Source of the DNA: Novakomyces olei
Lineage: Eukaryota
NCBI GenBank assembly: GCA_016906335.1
Contig: JADEYG010000007.1
Span: forward strand, 744,001-808,000
DNA: 64,000 nt
Reading direction: 5' to 3'
Below the pieces are notes generated by a model that was not told where the DNA came from, did no database searches, and saw only the letters and a program-made list of their open reading frames with translations. This document shows positions 31,726 to 64,000 of this stretch, one piece after another. The position numbers and the translations under genes were made by a program. The stretch's first letter is position 1, and each line of letters begins with the position of its first letter.

Positions 31726-32274
31726 GCCGCCGAGTGCCTATTAGCACATTACCACAGAAATTGCTTCAAAGTATCAGCAATTGTTTGGATAAGTGTGCCA
31801 CCTGTGGGCGAGATCAGCGTGTGGAAGAATTACACTATAATTATCGAAGGATTACTCAATATTGAACCCATATTTTAAGCAGCAGTACCGTGAATAATTG
31901 TAGGACAGAATATAACGGCAGTGCGGAGCTAATTATGGAGTAGAATAGATCAAACGCAGACGGGGCCCGTCTGTTTATTGTATACGATAATAATACCGTT
32001 GAATGACGTATATAAAACAGGGCAAAACCCGTCAAGATGGTTATGTCAGGCTAAAGGAAACCTCTGATAAAGCTGGCAAATTGAATTACAGACTAATTGA
32101 TAGTACTCGGCTCTTGATGCCGAAAGGTCCAGTAGAATATTGTGATTGCTGGGATTCGCTCGTTTGTGTCGTAGATTCTGGTTGGCAATGCTTCTTGCTA
32201 CCACGATCATAATGATAATTTTTATGGCAAAATTAATCTATTTATTTATTCTATGAACATTACGGAGATTTTTG

Positions 32275-32495
32275 AATATTTTATATTTTATATTTTATAT
32301 TTTATATTTTATATTTTATATTTTATATTTTATATTTTATATTTTATATTTTATATTTTATATTTTATATTTTATATTTTATATTTTATATTTTATATTT
32401 TATATTTTATATTTTATATTTTATATTTTATATTTTATATTTTATATTTTATATTTTATATTTTATATTCTATATTTTATGTTTTATATTTTATG
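32275..32495. repeat. (TATATTT)n 7-bp microsatellite, about 28 units
   Basis: Directly visible upstream of OST5. Confidence 0.95.
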
Positions 32496-32544
32496 TTTTT
32501 ATTTATTATTTATTATTTCGCTTTTCTATATCACTCCCAAGCTC

Positions 32545-32886
32545 ATGTCACTTCAACAAGCCTGGACTCAGGCCGGTGCTCGGCGCAATGTCGACTTACC
32601 GCCGTACGCGCTGTATGCTTTTCTTACCGTCCTTTTGGCATTTGTCTTTGGTGTTTCGTTTGTCCTGTAAGTCTTCGTACTCATTGCCTTGCGTGCTATA
32701 TTAAACATTAATGCTCTATGTACAGTTCAGTAACGAAGAAAAGTACGGGCAGCAGGGCGACTAGTTTTGCGTGTGCAGTTCTGTCCAGCATTTCAGTCGG
32801 GTATGTGCAAAAGTGCAGTGCTGTAAAATCTAACCCGCAGGTTTGGCGCTGTCTATTTTATGGGCGCTGCTGGAGTTTACGTATAG
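32545..32886 (+). CDS. OST5: Oligosaccharyltransferase subunit Ost5/TMEM258, about 81 aa. Exons 32545-32666, 32725-32800, 32841-32886.
   Basis: Two hydrophobic helices; spliced C-terminus SSISVGFGAVYFMGAAGVYV* matches the family's GVYV ending. Not present as a single ORF in the track. Confidence 0.8.
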
Positions 32887-34926: not shown

Positions 34927-37900
34927 TTAAAGCACATCCGCCACGGGAAAGAGTTCAATGATGCTTTTCTGTTCTTCATTACGACTTACCCGGTAGAAAT
35001 GGTCGCAGTATTCCGGGCAATTCATTAAACGGATAAAGTTTTCGTCATCTAGAGTTAGTATGGTTCAGGATCAAAATCGTACATGTAAACATATACATGT
35101 ACATATTTATTGATGCGTTTAATTGATTATTCAATTTCGGTTGGTATTTCTTTTTCTTCTTTTCTTCCTTTTTTCATTTCATTATTTCATTTTATTATTT
35201 ATTTATTCATTTTATTATTTATTTATTTATTTTATTCCCTTTTTATTATCTTTTACTCCTTACGCGTAATAACAACCAGTTGAAAGTTGGACTGCCTTCT
35301 CCGGTTTTCAACAACTTTAGCCAATGATTTAGCAAGGCTTTCAATGTTGTCCACATCAAGATTCGTAGTCGGTTCGTCGAGGCACAAGATACCGCACTGA
35401 ACACTAAAGCACTCGGCCAGAGCAAGTCTAATAATTATACTGGCCAGTACCTTTTGCCCTGCACTGCATCTGCCACGCATATCTAGCTCAGCGCTTCCCT
35501 TAACCATGCAAACGCGGTAGTTGTATGAGCGGTTGCCCCGTGCACCTTCGCTGTCAGAGCGGATCAGGATAGAGTCAACGTCCGTTCCGCAGTAAGTGTC
35601 CTTCCACAACTCGTCCAGGATCCGATTGACCTGGTCCATCTTCACGCTGTGGTACTTCATTATTGCATTGTCCAGCGCTTTCCCGTACTTTGCCAGATCG
35701 TCGTTGGCTTTTTCTGCAGTCCGCAGCTTTATCAGCTGAGCCCGGTATACTTCTCCAGCGTCCTTGTACTCGGTCGCTAGCTCTTTTTGCAGCCGGCGCA
35801 GCTGGTCGTCCATCTGCTTAACCTCTCCAAGAAACCCGGCACGTTTGGCGTTCAGCAGGCCATACGCATCTCGAAGTTCTTGAGAAAGGTGCTGGAACTG
35901 TGCTCGGTTCCGCAGAGCTTGTGCCTCGTCGTGCTGGGCAATCTCCTTGACCAGCGAGTCCCGCTCTGCCTCGAGCCGCTTGTACCTCAAACTGTCCGCC
36001 AAATTGCGCTCAGTGGCCCAAAGGCTGTTCAACTGCTTCTCCGTTTCACTGTACTTTGCCGAGTCTTGAGTAATCAGCGACTGCAAGTCGTCAACTGCAC
36101 TCTGCGCTTGCCGTACAGAGTCGTTTGACTCCTGTACCCGCTCTTTGCCTCCAATGTCCCGCTCAAAGTCTTGAATCTGTTGCTGCAAAGAGTCCAGCCG
36201 CATCACTATTTGCTGCAGCTTTGCATGCTCTTTTGTAGCTTCAGCCTGCCGTTTGTCAGCGGCTTTTTTGGCCTCTTCCACCAAATGCTTTTGCTGGTTC
36301 AAACTCTTTTGCACCCGGTCAAACTGCTCTTCTGCTGCTTCGATCTCTTGCAGGCTTGATTTAGCCGCTTTTTCGTGCTCAGCGATACGATCAGCCAAAA
36401 GCTGATCGTCACTAAGCCTATGCTCCAGGTCTGAGATTGTGAGCTGAATGTCCCTCCGCTTGTTGTCCTTGGCAACTATTTCTTGCCGAATCGAATCCCT
36501 CTGCGCAGTCAAAAGCTCAATCTCGGCTTTAGTGGCTTTTGCTCTGGCATTGCATCTTTGTATGGCAGCATGCAGCTGCTCCGGGTCTGAAGCTGTGCCA
36601 AAGGAGGCCAGCTCGTTACGCAGAGACTGCAGTTTATCGCCCAGGCCCTGAACCGTGTCCCAGTCTTTTATGCCAGACTCTATTTGCTCTACTATTAGCT
36701 GCAATTGCTGCAATTTTTGGCGCTCTTTTTGCTCTTGTTCCTGTAAGTGCTTGACCTTTTCCACACTCGCCCGGCCTTCAGCTGCAACATTATCCAGCTC
36801 CTGGCGCGCTTTAGCCAGCTGGTCTTGCTGTCTGGAGCGCACTAGTGACTTGTAAACAGGCTCAATCTCCTGTGCCACTTGCAAATCCGTTTTTACCGAG
36901 GCAATTTGCTGTGAAAGCTGGGCTTCGCGAGACGGTATCTGCTCAATACGCGCCCCCACAATACTCGTAAACGCAGACTTGTCCCCGTCTGTATCAAACT
37001 TGCGCTGGCAAAGGGAACAGCAGTTGCGATCGCCAGCAATGTCCAGTGCTTGAGAAAACCAGGAAACGGCAAAGTTTATGCCCTGTAATTGGCCGTCCAG
37101 CTTGTCAAGTTGGGCCTGCAGTGACGATTGGATCCCGGGAAACTCTTCTACAGAATCACAGACTTCTAATATCTGCCGTTCCCAGTTGGACTCGTCCGCC
37201 TCCAAGGCCGCGACTTGGGTCTGTGCTTGCTCCCTGTACACTGCAGTTCGGGCAGCATTGTCATTGGCCTCCTTCAGGCTTGCCACTGTCCTATCAACAT
37301 GGGCCTGGCACTCTTGAAGGTGCTGCTTGGCGGACGGTAAAAGCTGCTTCAAGTTTTCGCTTTTAATTTCTATTTCAATGGGTCCCACCTGGTTTGCCCA
37401 AGAGTCGTTCAGCAATTCAACGGTTTTGTCTACATTCTGCTGAGCCTGGCTCAAACTGCTTTCCTCCACCGAGATCCGTGTCGTCAAGGACTGATCCCGT
37501 CCTAGGGTCGCAAGTTCGCCATTGAGCATTTCCAATTCGTGCTCACAGCCCGAAAGCTGTGACTGCTTTTCTCGAATTTGAGAGTCGTGCAAAGAGTCTT
37601 TAAGTGCTGTACGTGCCTGTTCAAGCGAGCCCTCGAGCTCTCTCACTTGTCTCCTTCTATCCGTGATCGACTCGTGGGCCAGACGAGTATCCAGCTTGGC
37701 CCTTTGCCGTTCCAGGTCTTTTACCTGCTCTGTAGCCTCTCTCCAGCGAGTTCGCGCTGAAGATATTTGCTGTTCAATCACAGACGCTTCGAGAGCAAGC
37801 GCCTGCAATTTATCCTGTGCTTCAAACAAACGCCGACTGTCCTCTGCCTTGAAGTCGGCCAGCTTCTGCTGAGCCAATGTCTCTTGCTCTCTCAGCTTTA

Positions 37901-39062
37901 AGGACCCTTCTGCCACATCTAATGACTCGTCCCCTAGCGATGCATGAATATGCTGGCTCAATTGCCGCAATCGAGCCGTGTACGCTTCGTAAGCGGCTTC
38001 GGCCCGGCCATGCTCCGACTGAGCATGTGACAATCGGGTCCTCGCCTCTTCGAGTCGCGATTCATTTTGAGCAATAGACCGTTGCAAGACAACATTTTGA
38101 TTCTTACGCAGCTCCATACTGCGAGCAAAGTTGTCACGCTCCCTTTCCAAATCAGCCAGCGAAGTGTCAGGGTTTTCTGGGAGTTTCAAGTCGGATGCAA
38201 TCAAGGATTCCATTGCGTCAGTTATGGCGCGTACTTGATTACGCAGATTTGCCAGGCTGGCTAGTGTATGCTCAAAATCCTGGTTTGATCGGAACAATTG
38301 CTCTTGCCGGTCTGATGTCTCCTGAATTTGTTCTTCCACGGATGCTACCTGCGCAGTTAATTCATCAATTTTGGCGGACGTCTCTTTTGAATTCTTTTCT
38401 ATCCGTGCCGCCCTATCACAGTCAGTGCGATAATGAGCCAGAGCAGCTTCGTCAATTTTGACTTGTGTAATCTGTTCTTTGCGTATAGCCTTTATCTGAT
38501 CCAGAGCCTTGGCATACCGCAGGGCCTCAAAGATTTCGTCAAACTTTTTTTTCAATACTCCCGGCTCAGAGAGTGGCCAGAAAGAGTCCTCTTGATGGCA
38601 AAAGATGACATTGTCGAGTACAGCGCGTGAGACTCCGAGCGAACGCGGGATCAACGCATCAAGCTCAGCACACCGGCTCGATATAGCCGATCGTTCTCCG
38701 TTACGTATGACTACTAAATTTCCATCCAGCGTTTTCTGCTGACGCGATGATTTCTTTACAGAAAGCTGGAGCGACCTGGTACAAATCATACGAGCGCCAC
38801 TTGTATTGTTAAAGGACAGCTTTACCTGCGCATAGACGTCCTTCTCCCCGCAGATACTGGGATCATGAATAAATGCACCGTTTCGCGAGTTTGGTGGTAG
38901 ATCTCCCGTTGTCGCGTACTTTAGACATTCGATAATCGTAGTCTTACCCGACCCATTGTGGCCCACAATAAGGGTCAGCGGACTGAAAAACTGGATAGTT
39001 TCCCGCGTGCGGTGGTCAAACGACCTGACCCCCATTATACTGAGTTTGTCGAAAGACGACAT
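34927..39062 (-). CDS. RAD50: Rad50 SMC-like ATPase; one intron near the 3' end, splitting ITHD
   Basis: Walker A GHNGSGKT, FCHQED, coiled coil with zinc hook CSLC, signature CSAGQK, Walker B LDEPTTNLD, spliced VITHDE. Confidence 0.97.
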
Positions 39063-39364: not shown

Positions 39365-39697
39365 CGTACGTGTGTATGTGCGATAAGGTTAGTGGTTTGA
39401 GGCGATAAGACAATTGCGTAAATAAACGGCACAAAAACTAATCAATCGCATGGAATTAATGGGAAAGCGAGCAATGACCCTGAAGAAAATGCGGAAACCT
39501 AAAACCTAAACCCGAAACTTACAGAAAAATACAATGGAACAAGTACAATATGAATTACAAAGCCCTTACCATTGCCCGTGCGTGGGCAAACACCTGTATG
39601 TGAGAGCAAAGCTGGTTCTTATCCAAACTCTATTGCTGTATCATTAGTATATAAAGTCTCCTGGCGCTCGTTGTGTCACAGCGCGTCTTAATCAAAT

Positions 39698-40945
39698 ATG
39701 CATCGATTTCTCTACACAGTTTGGTGCCTTGTATGCCTCTGGCAATGTACTCTTTGCTCATCTCTTTTACGAAGAGACTACTTTTCGAAGAGTGGACAGA
39801 AAATTCGCGGCATAAACCTTGGTGGATGGCTCATCGTTGAGCCACTCATAACACCATCATTGTTCGAGAACAACAACGCCGTCGATGAGTATACCCTGTC
39901 ACAGGGAATGTGCATTTGTCAAAGAGAAAAAGTTTTTAGAAATCATTACGAAACTTTTATTACGCAGCAAGATTTTGTCGACATCAAGGAGTATGGGTTC
40001 AACTTGGTGAGAATTCCTGTAGGCTACTGGGCCTTTTTTAGAAAGGACCGTGACCCATTTTCACCCGCTTCTCAAGAGTATTTGGATAAGGCAATTGATT
40101 GGTGCAGAGAATTAGGCCTAAAAGTCTGGATCGATCTTCACGGACTGCCCGGGTCACAAAATGGACTTGTAGGCTCTGGTCGTAGTGGTCGTACTCGTTG
40201 GAACAGAGAACCTTACGGGGAAACTAAAACAATTGTAAAGACAATTATGGAAAAGTACAGTCGAAACGAGTATGAAAATGTCGTTGTAGGCATTGAAATA
40301 ATGAATCAGCCAAGATTACACGTACTTGGCTCTGATAATGTAGACAATTTTAATCGACATTCATACGATGTTTTACAGTCTTACAAGCCAAAAAACATTA
40401 GTTTTGTTGTGCAGCAAGGCTTTGTGTCCTCGCACACCTTCAGGGCCGTGACTTTTCAGGCCCCTTTCATGAAAACTATACCGAATTCAGTGCTCGATAT
40501 CCACTCCTATGTCTGTTTTGAAGAAGAATTGATGGGGACACCGGTGGATCGAGTGGTTAAATTGATTCGCCTGAACGGATACACTTTCAAATCGTTCGAG
40601 GAATCGGGTGGCCAAATTGTTGTAGGTGAATTTTCGTCGGCATTGAATGACTGTGCTCTTCATCTATATGGTAAGAATGTTGGAAACATTTACAATGGCA
40701 CTTTACCTGGTATTAAGCATGGCTTCGGATCATGTGATGGTGAGAATGATCTTTCCCTGTATCCAGAGGAGAAGAAGAAGCAAATGCGTTTATTCACAGA
40801 GGCACAAATGGACGCGGCTGATATGGCTTCCGGTTGGATTTTTTGGACGTACAAGACAGAGAACGAGTCGACCTCAGGTCCATGGAATTTTAAGGCCCTA
40901 GCACGTGAAAAAATTTTCCCTTTGCCTTTTGATAATCGTCTTTGA
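39698..40945 (+). CDS. Secreted GH5 exo-beta-1,3-glucanase-like protein (Exg1 family) with acid/base Glu replaced by Gln
   Basis: Signal peptide and RR site, IRGINLGGWL, VRIPVGYW, IDLHGLPGSQNG, GIEIMNQP, VGEFS, GWIFWTYK. Confidence 0.9.
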   Translation: MHRFLYTVWCLVCLWQCTLCSSLLRRDYFSKSGQKIRGINLGGWLIVEPLITPSLFENNNAVDEYTLSQGMCICQREKVFRNHYETFITQQDFVDIKEYGFNLVRIPVGYWAFFRKDRDPFSPASQEYLDKAIDWCRELGLKVWIDLHGLPGSQNGLVGSGRSGRTRWNREPYGETKTIVKTIMEKYSRNEYENVVVGIEIMNQPRLHVLGSDNVDNFNRHSYDVLQSYKPKNISFVVQQGFVSSHTFRAVTFQAPFMKTIPNSVLDIHSYVCFEEELMGTPVDRVVKLIRLNGYTFKSFEESGGQIVVGEFSSALNDCALHLYGKNVGNIYNGTLPGIKHGFGSCDGENDLSLYPEEKKKQMRLFTEAQMDAADMASGWIFWTYKTENESTSGPWNFKALAREKIFPLPFDNRL

Positions 40946-41347
40946 GCCGAAGAATTGCACCGCAAAAAAGGCGCTCCAGATTTGCCCACTAGTGCTGAGG
41001 AAGCATGATGGGTTCAACGTTTACGATGCTTCCTCGTATCAATGGCCTTTGACCTTGGAAATAGCTATTATACAGCTTTGTAACTGACTCGATCTGCAAT
41101 TTCTATCTATACATCAGCGCAAAGTTTAATTTATTTATTGATTTGTTGATTTATTTTTTGTGGCCATCAATCATTATAGAATCGTAATTATCGACAATGC
41201 TATATATATAATTCGAGAGCATCGACCCAGACCCTTCTCATTCCCAAGAAAACCATACATCCTCCAAAACTATTCATATTTTGGAAAGAATGAACAATAG
41301 AGAAGCAATAGAAATGAATAAATAAAATGAAGGCAATAAAGTATAAA

Positions 41348-43330
41348 CTACGAAAGAAAATCCCGATGTAGGTTTACAAATGCCGCTTCACACACGCCAA
41401 GATCCCCCAGCTTGTTCATCATAACATTTGTTTGTTGTGCTAGCCGTTCCAGCTGTGAAACTGGGCTCTTGCCCTGCCATATTAAAATGGCTGAATTAAC
41501 GGATTCCGCTAAATTTTGACGTTCTGAAAAATTCAGCAGGTACCCAGCAGCACTATACTCTGGCTCAGCATATCCCAGGAGCCCAAATACTTCGGTTAAT
41601 GCTCCAGCGTACTCTTTGCCACCATATTCACGATTCAAAGTTTGTCCATAGAGCAAAGCCTCTTGTAAATATGTTGAATCGACACCCCTTGCTTGAACTT
41701 GACTGTCATTTTCCTCACTTGTATCCAGTTGCATACTGTCACCAGAACCGAGCCCAGGCCTTGCGTCTGAGGCAAAATTCATGCGTGATTTGATGCCTGC
41801 CTCTTTTCTGCTGCTATCTGTTGTTTGACGAACAAGCTCAATCAGCCTGTGTACCTTGAGACGGAAAATTACAGCCTCATTGACCTCGGAAAACCCCGGA
41901 TAAGCACTTGTAGTCAGTTGCATCGCACTGTCCATATCGCCAGCAATTATACATTTACGGATCTCGTGACGCATAACTGCATCAGCATCGTCTTGATCAT
42001 TTATGCTGCTGTCCATATCGACATCGTTGTCAGTGTTGCTTCCAGCTATAAATGCGCCTTTAGCCGAGTCGGATTCTGTCACCAATTCTGCCCTAAAAGC
42101 TTTCTCACTATCGATAAAGCCGTTGTGCGACATGTACGACTGAATCAGAGACCTAACTCGATTGTAGAGTACCTGTTGAGTGCGCAGGGAAGCTCTATTG
42201 CCACTGCCATTGGCAATCTCAGGGTTAGGCCTCAATATTCTTTGGTAGATCGTCTCTTTTTCCCGGCGAATATGGCCGTCGATATCGTATGCAAAAGGCT
42301 TTGAACCAAAATTTGCGAGAACATGCTCACCCAGTGTCTTCATTCCGACTGCCGGGTAAAGAGTGCCCGTAATATTAGTAAATGTATTACCCAGGAAGAT
42401 CCCGTTCTTAGTGAAAAACCCTGTCCCTGTTGAAAAGTCTACACCGCACCCAACGACATCGCCCGTAGTAAACTTGGGTCCATAGGGCTTTCCCTGGCCC
42501 TGGCAGCAAAAGGAATGGCCATCGTCTCCGTGATAACCCCAGGAATCAACTTCCCAGCCAGGCAGGCGATCAATGGAAACGTTCTTTGTACAAAATCCTA
42601 TTCCAATATGGCCCTTTGTTCCCTTTGAAACGATCTGAACTTCAAAGTAATAAATGCCACACTGCCAGGGCATTGGCTTGTCTGCACGGGCACAGCCGGC
42701 ATCTCTTTCCAGGCCCTCATTGGACCCGATAAACCGGACTTCCAGTCCACTGCCAATCACCTCCATCAATTCACATTTGTCTTTTGCGTGCCAGCGAGAG
42801 GGAAGGGCTAATGACGATTTCTTGTCCCGTAAAGTGTCTAATTTTGTTGCACTTGAAGGCGCTTTACTCACAGCTTTAGACTGGTTCGCAGCCTCGTTTG
42901 CCTGACTGAACAAAAGCCGTTGTGTGTAGCAAGTTTCCCGTAAATAAGAAGGAATTACTAGTCCATCAACAGCAGTCGGACTCTCGCCATCCCAATATGC
43001 TTGGCGATGCTGGTGCTGGCGATGGGATCGGGACTGCTGATCGCTCAAGGTCTGTTGTGGCTGTGGTTCATACTGCGAACGTCTCCCACGTTGCAAAGAG
43101 CCATTTTGTCCTTCACCCTCCATTTGCTGTGCCCCTTGCTCCTCCTCCTCTTCGTCTCCCGCTTGATTTAGCCCTCGTCCAGCAATATTTCTTGGTTCTC
43201 CAGTACCAGCTACGTCTTCCTCCTCCGATTCGCTGTCGCTGCAAACTACTTCGTGACGTGAGAACCTCATCCTTGTTCCGTTACGTGATCTGCCACCAAG
43301 AAAGGAAGCTAAAGATGAGGTTTCTCGCAT
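41348..43330 (-). CDS. RanBP9/10-like GID/CTLH complex subunit (SPRY-LisH-CTLH-CRA)
   Basis: YYFEV, RLPGWE..SWGYHGDDG, GDVVGCG, NFGSKPF, LisH YMSHNGF, CRA FGLLGY..AESVNSAIL. Confidence 0.9.
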   Translation of the reverse strand: MRETSSLASFLGGRSRNGTRMRFSRHEVVCSDSESEEEDVAGTGEPRNIAGRGLNQAGDEEEEEQGAQQMEGEGQNGSLQRGRRSQYEPQPQQTLSDQQSRSHRQHQHRQAYWDGESPTAVDGLVIPSYLRETCYTQRLLFSQANEAANQSKAVSKAPSSATKLDTLRDKKSSLALPSRWHAKDKCELMEVIGSGLEVRFIGSNEGLERDAGCARADKPMPWQCGIYYFEVQIVSKGTKGHIGIGFCTKNVSIDRLPGWEVDSWGYHGDDGHSFCCQGQGKPYGPKFTTGDVVGCGVDFSTGTGFFTKNGIFLGNTFTNITGTLYPAVGMKTLGEHVLANFGSKPFAYDIDGHIRREKETIYQRILRPNPEIANGSGNRASLRTQQVLYNRVRSLIQSYMSHNGFIDSEKAFRAELVTESDSAKGAFIAGSNTDNDVDMDSSINDQDDADAVMRHEIRKCIIAGDMDSAMQLTTSAYPGFSEVNEAVIFRLKVHRLIELVRQTTDSSRKEAGIKSRMNFASDARPGLGSGDSMQLDTSEENDSQVQARGVDSTYLQEALLYGQTLNREYGGKEYAGALTEVFGLLGYAEPEYSAAGYLLNFSERQNLAESVNSAILIWQGKSPVSQLERLAQQTNVMMNKLGDLGVCEAAFVNLHRDFLS

Positions 43331-57976: not shown

Positions 57977-59943
57977 ATGGCTCCTCGCCGGCGACCTTGC
58001 GATGCCTGCCGTAACCGCAAATCGCGGTGCGAGTTTGATGGAACGGAACCGCGATGCTGTCTTATGTGCCGCTTCCACTCTACCGAGTGCACTTTCCACA
58101 AAGACCCACCGCCCCGACCTGTGCATGCGAAGAAATGGGCTCATGGCGAGTTCACTGTCCCCATTCTGTCCTCCTCCTCCTCTTCCAAGAAGGCATTTAT
58201 GGCTACGGCTTCTGTCCGTGAAGCGGTAGATCGCGCTTCCGTAACTTCATACAACTTGAGTCGTGCTAAAGTACCAAGTTCCCTACTCAATTCGAACTTG
58301 GGACTCAACAACGATCAAAGTGTCCACTACATTGGCCACACTCACGCTCTAGCGCCGCCTACTTTTTCATTCGCGCCCTTTCAAGAAGGCCAAACTGAAC
58401 TTGGATCGCGGCTGAGTGTCCGCCAAGTACAAGCAAACACCACGTTTCTCATAGCCGCAGAATCAAATGAGAATCGTGCACGGGTTGCAGTTGATCTGAC
58501 GGCTCTTGATGCGATTATTCAGCCTTATGCTGCCGACTTGACTCGTGTATATTTCGCCCGAGTGCATCCTTGTTTTCCCCTCGTGGACAAGCACGTTTGG
58601 CTGGAAAAAACTGAGAGAAATCAGGCAGAAATTTCACCACTTTGCCTGGTGGGCATGTACGCAGTCGCCCTGAAATGGTGGGATCAGGATGCGGGGCTAC
58701 GAGAGCAGAAACGGCGGCCAGATGAGGCCGCACTTCACGCATTAGGGGACCGTTTATTGTCGGAAATGATGTGCGAGCCTTTTGCTCATTTTTCACACGT
58801 ACAGGGGGCAGCATTAATACTGCTTGCCCGGCAGGGAGAAAATGTTAGTTGGGCACAATTGTCTCTGATTGTGGCCAAAGCCAAGCAGCTGGGACTCCAT
58901 CTCGACTGTGAAGCCTGGAGTATTTCTGTGTGGGAGAAGATGTTACGGCGCCGGCTGGCTTGGGCACTTTATGTTATAGATGCTTGGTACGCTCTAGGAC
59001 TGGGGATGCCGCCTAATATATCGGAATCTTGGTGGCACGTACGCGTGCCCCTGCAATCAGAGTTTTCAATTCACGGTGATACAAGTGAGCAGGAGCATAT
59101 TGCTTACTTGGTGTTTTTGCAGCTGATCAACCTGAGTCGGATTGTTGCTGCTATTTGTCATACAATTACGTACGTATTTTAATTGGTCTTTTTTTTTAAA
59201 AATTTTATTTATCGATGATTATCTAGTATGATGCTAATTAAAGCGGAGCAACGATGGAGACTTCAGGTGTCGCGAGTCTCGAGCTCGATGCCTGTGATCG
59301 GTTTCAGCAGCGAATGAACGACTGGTTTCACAAACTTCCGGCTGCCTTTTGGGACGCTGATGACTTTGCAGTCCCTATAAAATCGTTACAATTATGTTTT
59401 GTTGCGGTCAATGTTGTTATTGGAAGGCTATTGTTACAATCCTCTGGAAATATGCACGCAGAAACACAGAGAATGTGTCGCGAATCGGCTCGTCGACGCG
59501 TACTTACAGTTATTGAGTTTATGCGTAGTCTAAGAAGCATTAAATCTGTGCAAGTCTTTTGGTACCCCGGCGTTGAACACTGTGCCTTGCTGGCTGGATT
59601 GCTGGTTCACACAATGCTTGTCACTTCTATCACTTTGGAGGAAGCAGCCTGGTTTCGTGCCTGTTTACAAAACTTTAGCACTCTTTTAAATGACCTTTGT
59701 GAAAGCAATGCTGGGTTTAAACTCGCACAGGCTCGATTGGATCAGATTACCATGTACATTTCGCAGGTAAGCGACGAGCAAATTGTATCCCGGCAAGAGC
59801 TGGCTCGAGCTCTATGGTCCACGATTGTAGACGGGATTAATCTTAGTCCAGACGGATTGAATGCAGGAGCAATAAATTTGAACCAAGAGCAGGTCGAGCC
59901 AAACCAGGATGAGGTTTCCTTGAGCCAGGATGAGTATTTGTAA
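57977..59943 (+). CDS. Zn(II)2Cys6 transcription factor with fungal TF domain (Dal81/TamA-like); one intron near 59170-59226
   Basis: CDACRNRKSRC..CLMC..CTF, YF.RVHP.FP, LGLHLDC..W....WEK.LRRRLAWALY. Confidence 0.88.
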
Positions 59944-60225
59944 ACTGAACGAGTATATCCTGGGAGTTTTCGTCGCGACTTTGAATCTGCACGAATGCTT
60001 ATTGACTAGCAAAAGCTGTTGATTGTGCTGAATGAGCATTTCGAAATTTAAACAGATTTTTTTAAGAGAGCTTTGATAGGCGTTGTACCAATATTAATTA
60101 ATAAAACACTTGCAGTAATGCTAAACCTCACAGTGTAAACATTACTCAAGCCATGAAAAAACGTAGACATAAATTGGACATAATTCAAGCTAAATAATCT
60201 AGACAATCATAATTATGAATGAAAA

Positions 60226-61144
60226 TCAAGTACAATCCCGGCGCGGGGGGAAAGCGAGCCAGCTGGCGGCAATGGCGGCCTTCAAAGAGGCAGCCAGCCA
60301 AAGCACAGACGCAAGTCCTACCCTCCGCTCTATCCAGCCACCACAAACAGCTCCGACAAAGGCAGCCAGAGCACCGGCGACTCGGCGATCCCGTTTTTCA
60401 TTGTGGAGAGAGAATATTTGAGCATCACTGGTCAGATCGTTATATAAACTAGTAAGAACAGTGGTAGGCAATTCGTTAAACCCGAGGACACGGCTCGAGG
60501 CCACCTGCGCACCAAACTGAACAGACAGCATTGGAATAGCGATACAAATTCGCTCGTTGTATAATCGGAAACGAGGCGGGATAACGCCGGTTTGTACCAG
60601 GATTGCGGGTATAAATATAAGCAGACTTTGCAGCAAAAACCCGAGGAAAAGGGAGCTTCGTCTTAAGGGGCCCATCCATCGTGATAAACGGGAAAAGGTA
60701 AACGATCCCAACATGAACCCGGGAATAGCGATTAAAGCGTGCAGCCAAAGCCGAGGATCGTCCTGCGGCATTCGCGCTGTCCCGATACCAAGAAACACAG
60801 TGTTGCCTGTTGCATATTAGAATACGAGCCGCAACATAGACATTGACTATAAAAAGCTCAATCAGAAAAGCAATAGTGCACAGTAATCGGCAGTAAATCA
60901 GTGTCAAAGCCTACTTTTCCCGAATATTTGAGCGTCAGAAAGCAGAGCGTGCAAGATCAGAATTAGTATTACCTGTTTGCATTCCCGTAAAGACAGAGTA
61001 GGAGGAAAACATGCCAGCGTCTACGAGACAGGTGATATAAAAGCAGAGCAAAAGCGCGATATAGCCATGTTTAGGATCAATCGATTTTTGTAGCCATATT
61101 TCCCCGCTATCATTGCTCTCCTTTGATTCGCTGGCAGACGGCAT
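60226..61144 (-). CDS. DUF1275/YoaK-family membrane protein, 2 exons
   Basis: LVDA..F....VFTGMQT|GNTVFLG, Q.G.Q..SR.LG..ELPTTVLTSLY.DL..D; multiple TM helices. Confidence 0.85.
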
Positions 61145-61792
61145 TCAGGGTCTTTAACTCGACAAGTCTATAACAAATTAGCGATTAGCGCGGCCGCAGC
61201 TTACCGAGGACCGATCCTGAAATGAGAATATTGAAATTCAGAAAGCGCAGTGACAGATTTCGGTGGTTACGCTATCTGTCGCGCGGCAAAAATAATCCAT
61301 CATGCCCACACAAGATTGCTTGAAAAAACGAAAGCGCTATTATAGTATTATCGAGACAAAATATTAGCACATCGCATTTAAGCATTATTAATTATTAACA
61401 AGTATAAAATATACTGGATCATCACTTAATGTATCGATGGATAGAGATACAGACTAAATCTGTGACTAAAATTTGGCAGTTGGAAGGACAAGTGAATCGT
61501 ATCTATTCTACACAATCGCAATCTATTTGGAAACCTGAAGCAGTCTGAACAATACAAGTCTTAACCCATAACCCTTACCTTGCTATCGCGTACAAATCTA
61601 TCTAGTCTACATTGTGTATACATATATATACCCAAGTATATCTCCAGCGCACATCGGGCAAGATCGGTCATTGCTTTGGCAATTGAAGGCCATTTCTCGT
61701 TTAGCCGTGCTTTCTTTGCCTCGAGATTCTTTTGCCTCTCCTCTGCTGCCCTTAGAGTCCGAAACTTTATATCCTTTCGCCTTTCTACCGCT

Positions 61793-64000
61793 TCAGAACT
61801 CCAGCTGGTAATCCGTATCGAGAAACGGCTCGCAATCAGCTACAGACTGGCCCAGAATCTCGCAAAGCATGCTTGTAATATTCGGGTCAGTACGAGCATC
61901 CACCAGTTTCTCTGTATCAAGGGAATCAATCTTTTGTCTCGGCGGCTGTTTCCCCATAGTCCACCCTGTAGACATAAACGCTTCTGAAAGCAAAGAGAAA
62001 TTGTCACTGAACGGCTTTGCATCCGGCCACCTGTCGGCCATTACACTGAGCAGGGAAACACACCGAGTAATTTGTGGCATTATCCGGTGAATAACGTCAA
62101 AAAGCCTCTCCTGATCCTGGCTCCAGAGGCAGTAAAGTAGAGTAATCCCAGCTCCATATATGTGGTGAAGCGTGTAGTAAGTATGCCTTAAATATCCATT
62201 GGATTGCATTATTTGAAACAGGTTCAGCATCTCTGTTGCTGCGGAAACAACACGGAAGACTTCGTCGCTAGTTGTGCTCCCGTCAATTAAGGCATTTCTG
62301 CAGAGTGTAAAAATCGTATTGTGATAAACGAGTCCCAGTGTGGAGTAAGGGTCCCCTCGCAGTAAGGAAACGTCCAAGTCTCGCGGCAATTCTGCCCAAA
62401 CTTGATCTAATTCTCTAATAAAATGCTTGCGCTGTTCTCGTCTTTCCTCGATTCCACCGTCGGCCCTTTTACACAGAAAGCTCTTCACTAACCCCTGCCA
62501 CCGGCGAAGCCTAATGGTTGCATTGAATATTTGAATAGCAACACTATCAACACTCGTATACTCTGGCAACCAAGGATCAGGCAGGCAAGCGTCAATCTCG
62601 TCATCTGGGATCCGTGTTGGTCGACCCAGTAGGAAAGTATCACTGCGATCAAGCGCATAAATTGAATAAAAAAGCCGATTCCGTTGATCAACATCAAGTC
62701 TTGACCAATGTAACCGGTCCCGGTGCAATGAGGCATCTCTATGTAAACCTTGCTGCATGGCAGTGTTGAGCGACATGCCCACTAGTCGCCAAAGGCTCTG
62801 GCCGGATCGGCTTTGCAGGCTGTAAACGGCCAGTAAGAAAAGCGCCTGCACGCATAGAGTATCATCTCGTACAAGCACCGGGTCAATGTACCTCAGTGCC
62901 GACATGTAAAAGGCTCGTGAACTGTACTTTGCATGGTAACTGAAATGTAAAGGCTCCATAAATTTAGCGCCAATGGCCCACACCATATAAACTTGGAACA
63001 AATCTTGTGCTTGAGCTCCGTTTCGGAGTGTTTGTACATTTGCTAGACGTTGAGCAAAAGCATGACGATCAAGTATGGGGTACTGCCAATGAATCCAGGC
63101 GAAAAAACTCTCTACCAGCTCTTCAGAGTGAGCAGGATTAGGGATAGGAGCCTCTTTTACCTGGCTTTTATATATACTATCATACATCCTGTACTCGGGC
63201 TGTGAATCAACTGGGAGGGGCACCTCCATCTGCAATGTCTTCCCAAGCACTCTCGCAAAAGTTAGGCCTGAAGACGAGCCCATGAAATGATGTTCGCTAG
63301 AGGCACTTAGAGCTAAAAGGCCAACACCTGACGCGATCTCGTCATACTCGTGCGAAGGCAGAACCATGCCCGAAGATTCGGCTGAAACTGATTCCGGTGA
63401 CTTTTCCGATAGACTTTGTCTGGAATCTAGTCGCTGTACTTGCCCAGGCTTTGATCCCGGGGCCGAGCCTGATATATGTCTTGATCCTAATTGAGACTCG
63501 TAAGTTTCATGTTTTGCCAGTTTGGATACTGGCTCTTCTGCACTTTCAGGCGCAGCTGTAGTTGGACCGTTTTCTTCTGCTCCTGTTCCTCCTGCAGCTG
63601 CCGCTGGAAGTGCAATAGAAAGCGACACTCCCGAGTCTGCAGCTGCAAAATGGTCCAGCACTAAATCCGGTCTGTATACATGCAACGATTTTTCCAGTAG
63701 AGCGACTCGTTCTTCCAGAGACTGAACGTATCCGCGCGGATAAAGCCGTTCCGAGTACGGATCTTCCATAACGCAGACCAAATTGGCCCTTCGGCACGCG
63801 GAGCAGCTGAACGTGGGTTAAACAAACCGTAAAGATAACGCATTTGTAATAAAGCAACATCCAACGAATTCAGGCGTAAAAAAAAGAATTGAAAACATTG
63901 GAGATGATTATCCATAATGACTTACGATGGTACTTCACCGTCGCACTATCGCGATAAAAAGCAAACGCATTAGTTACAATTAAACTTTAAGAGGCAATTG
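61793..64000 (-). CDS. Zn(II)2Cys6-type transcription factor (Ppr1/UaY-like); 5' exons extend beyond the window
   Basis: End of the zinc cluster (CSACRRANLVC), PRGYVQSLEERVALLE dimerisation coil, GSSSG, FF..IH..YPIL, GLHRD..RNRLFYSIY.LDR..LGRP. Confidence 0.85.

Follow-up and report, generated by a model that had tools for sequence, protein, structure and literature searches.

The window, a single stretch of 64,000 nucleotides of DNA, contains an exo-glucanase-like gene of glycoside hydrolase family 5 (GH5) in which the catalytic acid/base Glu reads Gln. This raises the question of whether the substitution is genuine, and what a protein that carries it could still do. Our analysis showed that the Glu-to-Gln swap is genuine and rare, and that the paralogue which carries it is specific to the lineage and otherwise well kept. 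We tentatively favor the reading that the product is a secreted, folded binder which no longer cuts ordinary glucan.

The gene is an intronless open reading frame (ORF) of 415 codons whose sole Pfam family match is PF00150. It is flanked by a RAD50 gene on one side and an SPRY/CTLH gene on the other, with a biotin ligase gene further out.

39648..39655 (+): TATA-like box TATATAAA, a candidate read by eye, about 45 bases 5' of the ATG
39698..40945 (+): Exg1-like GH5 (subfamily 9-like) ORF, 415 amino acids, intronless; AlphaFold2 mean pLDDT 89, TM 0.83-0.86 against fungal Exg structures
39698..39775 (+): putative signal peptide (about residues 1-20), then a dibasic RR (residues 25-26), then the mature domain

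By descent the protein belongs to GH5 subfamily 9 (GH5_9, Exg1-like), as it has the PF00150 barrel and its closest solved structures are those of fungal Exg. The fungal GH5_9 exo-beta-1,3-glucanases include Exg/Xog1 of Candida albicans (1eqp, 1cz1, 3n9k), Exg1 of S. cerevisiae (1h4p), and AoBgl of A. oryzae (8z2w), and 3N9K is the GH5_9 representative in Table 1 of PMC3526467. The window protein resembles these enzymes in sequence (33-36% identity), in predicted fold, and in its N-terminal hydrophobic leader. The AlphaFold2 model, built from an alignment of the window protein with 77 of its 120 best homologs, suggests that an Exg-like fold is kept, although it leans on these homologs and is not proof of folding by the window protein. 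The initial annotation had described the full ORF and the signal peptide as intact. The frame is indeed open, but the last Cys of the family is missing, and the leader is judged by eye and by hydropathy (2.25 across residues 4-14). The RR that follows it may be a Kex2 site. The GC3 of the gene (0.42) lies inside the range of its neighbors (0.42-0.56) and is uninformative about selection.

40304..40312 (+): Asn203-Gln204-Pro205, with Gln (CAG at 40307-40309) at the place of the acid/base Glu
40313..40315 (+): Arg206, adjoining the NQP motif, at the position of Exg Leu194; Arg in 0/120 homologs

The NQP swap that had been reported for this GH5 exo-glucanase is real. Gln204 aligns, with no gap nearby, to the acid/base Glu192 (NEP) of C. 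albicans Exg, which is described as the proton donor (PMC10304600), and the alignment places no other Glu at this position. The motif GIEIMNQP had been read correctly; in full it occupies 40289-40312, whereas the interval given for it, 40295-40312, covers EIMNQP. The column of Gln204 holds Glu in all of the 120 best homologs. We also pooled the best 120 of 2578, the best 120 of 585, and the best 150 of 4224 matches into 345 distinct proteins, and found Glu in 342 of them, Ser in one, Thr in one, a gap in one, and Gln in none. The search for NQP in relatives that had been proposed thus returned no case among these best matches. Likewise, our literature search, whose coverage was incomplete and mostly without subscription papers, found no natural NQP fungal exo-glucanase.

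The proposed confirmation of the CAG was obtained from Logan contigs of two runs in two studies (X1, depth 1091; X2, depth 4.4), which show no other letter at codon 204; it holds as far as contigs, not raw reads, can tell, and each run is possibly the source of the window DNA. Another run (X3, depth 2.6) covers only 151 bases, identical to the window and outside codon 204. None of the runs listed for this DNA was an RNA data set, which counts neither for nor against expression. A sequencing error behind the CAG is unlikely.

To describe the pocket, residues were mapped by hand from the alignment of the window protein with Exg.

39839..39841 (+): Glu48 kept, the residue that binds glucose (Exg Glu27)
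40166..40174 (+): Exg Phe144-Asp145-Asn146 replaced by Leu157-Val158-Gly159; one half of the Phe-Phe clamp gone
40415..40417 (+): Gln240 in place of a near-invariant Asp (Exg Asp227)
40502..40519 (+): His269, Tyr271, and Phe274 (Exg His253, Tyr255, and Phe258), all kept
40568..40570 (+): Arg291 in place of a Cys whose presence follows that of the C-terminal Cys in homologs
40628..40630 (+): Glu311, the nucleophile (Exg Glu292), kept
40667..40690 (+): Tyr324 and Ile331 in place of near-invariant Exg Asn305 and Arg312
40844..40846 (+): Trp383 (Exg Trp363), kept
40941..40958 (+): T run, stop at 40943-40945, then an out-of-frame vestigial EPKNC tail

PMC10304600 lists eight GH5 core residues, and the window protein keeps seven of them (R105, H148, N203, H269, Y271, E311, and W383; in Exg, Arg92, His135, Asn191, His253, Tyr255, the nucleophile, and Trp363), so the nucleophile in VGEFS is intact, as had been noted. 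Exg Glu27, Phe229, Phe258, and the Cys300/Cys326 pair are also kept. Unlike Exg, the window protein is changed at the near-invariant positions F144L, D145V, N146G, E192Q, D227Q, N305Y, and R312I (Exg numbering), with one Trp-to-Tyr elsewhere, and it has lost Cys275 and the C-terminal Cys. The Phe144/Phe258 clamp is incomplete, with Leu157 at the first position, but Phe274 is kept at the second. In the alignment, the protein lacks two defining features of active GH5_9 enzymes, namely the acid/base Glu and the full Phe-Phe clamp. Two further motifs, NGLVGSG and DIHSY, had been presented as altered pocket motifs, and both read as stated. However, we rejected DIHSY as a pocket lesion, because it retains the invariant D267, H269, and Y271 and its two changed His are variable in homologs (89/120 and 69/120).

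We estimated whether the changes are concentrated in the pocket. With a pocket list from one paper, 4 of 16 pocket positions were changed versus 4 of 38 others (p 0.17, not significant). With a wider list, the counts among 54 near-invariant positions were 7 of 20 versus 1 of 34 (p 0.003, and p 0.009 and p 0.019 at looser thresholds); this list consists of residues named in three docking papers, including PMC10861550 and PMC11201426, and was chosen post hoc, after the changes were known.

The ORF ends with FDNRL, five codons short of the near-conserved last Cys of the family. In the frame shifted by +1 base, the end reads EPKNC, which resembles the C-terminal P-x-x-C of Exg1, and a contig of a further run (X4) has one T fewer here than the window allele. 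Because EPKNC lies one base out of frame and X4 is without the extra T, the last Cys has been lost by the window allele. The likely partner of this Cys, Exg Cys275, is Arg291 in the window protein. In the 120 homologs both Cys are present in 108 and both absent in 11, and the one discordant case is a truncated sequence. This pattern suggests that the two form a disulfide whose paired loss is tolerated. We rejected the early stop as proof of decay, since the two Cys are also absent together in those 11 homologs.

The host genome (G000, 14.3 Mb in 15 contigs) gave 12 matches at 8 loci for Exg-like sequence. A canonical Exg1 with all 20 invariant pocket positions intact is found at G000:C3:1670646, so the NEP paralogue that was to be looked for does exist beside the window gene. 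In the tree, which took in seven of the genome's own and 36 of the 120 outside sequences, the window gene groups with the copy at C1:181416 and a broken copy at C4:548121-549100 (99/98); the branches of all three are long and attraction is possible. The three copies also share HGLPGSQNGL, a Phe after the nucleophile position, and AQMD.

The C1 sister (L002:1465-2721 (+), in G000:C1, match 181416-182618) has an open frame of 419 codons with a leader, and a galactokinase gene comes next. It keeps NE at the acid/base but has Lys at the nucleophile, and it has lost the equivalents of Exg Glu27, His135, Tyr255, and Trp363. In total, 16 of its 20 pocket positions and 6 of 34 other invariant positions are changed, with the C-terminal half aligned less surely. 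The sister is likely a pseudo-enzyme, and a clearer one than the window gene; its core is largely kept, and given that its pocket-biased changes occur in an open frame, the clade already holds a likely pseudo-enzyme. The C4 copy (L009:674-1740 (-), in G000:C4, matches 548121-549100) keeps NEP and has Gln at the nucleophile. It is broken by one frameshift and in-frame stops, and its N-terminal part is not recognizable. The window, C1, and C4 genes are therefore lineage-specific copies that each lack one catalytic Glu, but C1 and C4 have lost the nucleophile instead.

The loss of F144 (Leu157) is common to all three copies, and the change of D145 to Val (Val158) is common to the window gene and C4. 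Because they are shared with sister copies that keep the acid/base Glu, Leu157 and Val158 predate the Gln. Judged from the alignment, part of the pocket remodeling is older than the Glu-to-Gln swap and not tied to it. For the same reason, the argument that several coordinated pocket changes vouch for the Gln does not hold.

A second paralogue pair with Gln/Pro/Thr-rich tails was also observed in the genome. One copy (L004:1456-3006 (+), at G000:C7:35202) is intact with both Glu, and the other (L005/L012, at G000:C1:1133460-1134597) has a frameshift and a stop. Two of the six secreted-type Exg-like copies of the genome are broken.

The estimate of dN/dS that had been suggested could be approached with the X4 contig, a single contig of 403 bases and depth 3.2 that matches 40724-41140, covers the last 73 codons, and leaves codon 204 outside. 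In the coding part it differs from the window by six silent changes and one replacement (pS 0.157, pN 0.007, P 0.0004 under neutrality), and the non-coding divergence, 0.152, is near pS. Six of the 36 differences, near the ends, are unlisted; if all of these were replacements, pN/pS would be 0.30 and P 0.03 in the worst case. The silent changes are bunched, with five of six in the last 17 codons (p 0.008; that part alone, P 0.003), so the contig may be a mosaic. The result is a hint of recent purifying selection near the gene end. It rules out a pseudogene that has long been neutral, whereas a lesion of recent date would still fit. We rejected the contig as a paralogue, because it continues into the window's own downstream DNA, which is single-copy in G000. 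X4 is labeled as a food metagenome, and the divergence of its contig at neutral sites, about 15%, points to a relative of this isolated lineage that has yet to be sequenced; the habitat label rests on one thin contig and is not niche evidence.

No orthologue of the window protein was found: no match exceeded 39% identity among the best 120 of 2578, and none stood out among the best 150 of 4224 representatives, with at most 41% over the full length. For the C1 sister, full-length identity stayed at or below 36% in the best 120 of 585 matches. A scan of metagenome contigs for relatives gave 131 pattern matches and no relatives, and the ESM Atlas search gave ordinary Exg clusters only. The terminal branch of the window gene is 1.12 changes per site. 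The SPRY/CTLH protein next to it (41348-43330, -) has its best named matches in Pneumocystis and Saitoella at only about 50% identity. Thus the host is a deep ascomycete without a close annotated relative, probably of the Taphrinomycotina, and this agrees with the absence of orthologues.

Of the readings considered, a pseudo-enzyme that binds remains the likeliest, though we hold it with less than even confidence. The window gene would be a lineage-specific Exg1 duplicate whose product is still secreted and folded as a barrel but does not turn over ordinary O-glucosides. The deep subsite would hold a terminal beta-glucosyl unit through the kept E48, R105, H148, N203, H269, Y271, E311, and W383. 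Gln204 would be unable to protonate the sugar leaving group or activate water, and beta-1,3-glucan cutting would therefore stall. The outer pocket (Exg F144, D145, N146, D227, N305, and R312, all changed) would have been rebuilt earlier, and the protein therefore probably prefers another ligand than Exg1 does. Its likely job would be binding: at the cell surface it would cap or mask the ends of glucan, or glucosides, with the intact Exg1 alongside doing the cutting. The sequence, the alignment, the paralogues, and the predicted fold are direct results; from them, the case for a loss of activity is strong, and that for secretion, binding, and any role is weak.

Little or no glucan hydrolysis by the window protein is highly probable, because the same swap engineered into the GH5 enzyme RBcel1 (E135Q) is reported to impair both catalytic steps and, even when the substrate is an activated one, to leave a kcat of 0.219 x 10^-3 per min (PMC8900817). 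The RBcel1 variant binds cellotriose in crystals (PMC8900817). Together with CelC E140Q (PDB 1ceo/1cen), it carries the substitution seen here, in the same family, and such engineered variants trap sugars in crystals: they bind and barely cut. However, these are endoglucanases that were mutated in the laboratory and whose cleft is normal in other respects, whereas the window protein is natural.

GH5 proteins without the full machinery are a known and recurring kind, described in PMC3526467 for Rsi24C-GH5 of Clostridium thermocellum, subfamily GH5_30, and a GH5_1-derived group in Xanthomonas. Rsi24C-GH5 has lost its acid/base and binds cellulose (PMC3526467). The window protein is like this kind in its (predicted) GH5 fold, its incomplete catalytic machinery, and its long branch. 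In contrast, Rsi24C-GH5 and the Xanthomonas group come from bacteria, where they are joined to further modules, and GH5_30 is a separate fungal subfamily, while the window protein is stand-alone, predicted to be secreted, and in the Exg1 group. The section of PMC3526467 on non-catalytic GH5 proteins names no GH5_9 case.

A binder is favored by the kept fold and deep subsite, the concentration of changes in the pocket under the wider list, the intact Exg1, the sister pseudo-enzyme, and the recent constraint. Several points count against it. The nucleophile and its helpers outlived 1.12 changes per site and were lost in C1, which suggests that catalysis was selected until late. The half-lost Phe-Phe clamp argues against good beta-1,3-glucan binding. 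The one-paper pocket list was not significant, the X4 contig is single, thin, and off codon 204, and no orthologue was found. The initial interpretation is thus partly supported, and its pseudo-enzyme is retained; its coordination argument, its definition of myrosinases, and its effector fared less well, and we found nothing in support of an effector.

It had left recent decay unweighed, though two of six copies are broken, and this explanation is a serious possibility. The protein would have been an active glucosidase with a remodeled outer pocket until lately, and the Glu-to-Gln swap would be a young loss of function, confined to this strain or species, in an early pseudogene. Gln204 (CAG), Arg291 (CGC), and the extra T would each be one step from the family state, unlike the pocket changes V158, G159, Q240, and I331, which would need at least two. 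The one listed replacement relative to X4, Asn413 (Asp there), seems to be derived in the lineage of the window, as does the early stop, and the rest of the catalytic machinery is intact after a long branch. However, there is only one replacement in about 151 replacement sites relative to X4, and any relaxation must therefore be recent and confined to a small part of the branch. Moreover, 33 of the 34 non-pocket invariant positions are kept, and the paired Cys loss in 11 of 120 ordinary homologs means that the short tail need not be damage.

It is unlikely that the enzyme was repurposed in the manner of a myrosinase or a glycoligase, in which Glu311 would attack a glucoside that carries a good leaving group, and an outside base such as ascorbate, or an anionic acceptor (thiol, carboxylate, or phenolate), would then free the glucosyl-enzyme. 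Its Gln/Glu pair is the same as in classical myrosinases (PMC8836197), the TGG1-6 type of family GH1, which also have a (beta/alpha)8 barrel. The nucleophile and its neighbors R105, H269, and Y271 are kept, the outer pocket has been remodeled, and the Arg206 that adjoins the Gln has no counterpart in the 120 homologs; basic residues have been described for glucosinolate binding in atypical myrosinases (PMC8836197). However, classical myrosinases are plant GH1 enzymes that require ascorbate and act on glucosinolates, while the window protein is GH5 and matched only PF00150. With respect to basic residues for sulfate or ascorbate, Arg206 is gained and the equivalent of Exg Arg312 is lost, a mixed picture rather than a plain rise in basic character. 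The sisters share part of the pocket change yet keep the acid/base Glu, no link to a glucosinolate niche was found, and the engineered GH5 swap impairs both steps (PMC8900817). The statement that Gln defines myrosinases has to be withdrawn. Rice has no known myrosinases, and its GH1 genes Os4bglu14 and Os9bglu33 carry Gln (PMC1781453), while atypical myrosinases keep Glu (PMC8836197). According to these two sources, Gln at the acid/base is neither unique to myrosinases nor needed. A natural glycoligase, in which an Exg1 descendant reached the myrosinase solution independently and splits or transfers activated glucosides, with its sister made a pure binder by nucleophile loss, seems improbable.

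That the protein is a normal exo-glucanase, with the CAG an error or another carboxylate acting as acid/base, is very improbable: the CAG is known from assembled contigs of runs that may both be the source of the window DNA and Glu200 lies four residues upstream of Gln204, but two studies agree on the codon, one of them at great depth. Glu200 is also found, together with Glu204, in 105 of 120 ordinary homologs, and the AlphaFold2 model puts it in the strand that precedes the motif. The equivalents of Asp145 and Asp227, which are close by, have been lost rather than gained.

Should the Gln prove to be old and retained, the window protein would be a natural mutant that binds but barely cuts in the best-studied fungal exo-glucanase group, and together with its nucleophile-less sister and the intact Exg1 it would offer a three-way comparison of the change from glycosidase to binder in one genome. 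If activated glucosides are turned over, myrosinase-like chemistry would have arisen independently in a second family and kingdom, and the protein would offer a natural scaffold for a glycoligase. If recent decay is true, the gene is an ordinary dying duplicate.

Other features of the window were noted in passing. The RAD50 ORF (35253-39062, -) ends with LVVITRKE directly after the Walker B region, which is probably an intron boundary rather than a truncation. A low-complexity tandem repeat at 32253-32711 produces a spurious ORF made of FYILYFI units. At 57977-63769, as judged by eye, a small membrane-protein gene (60226-60771) is located between two genes that resemble fungal transcription factors, one of them with a Zn2Cys6-type start.
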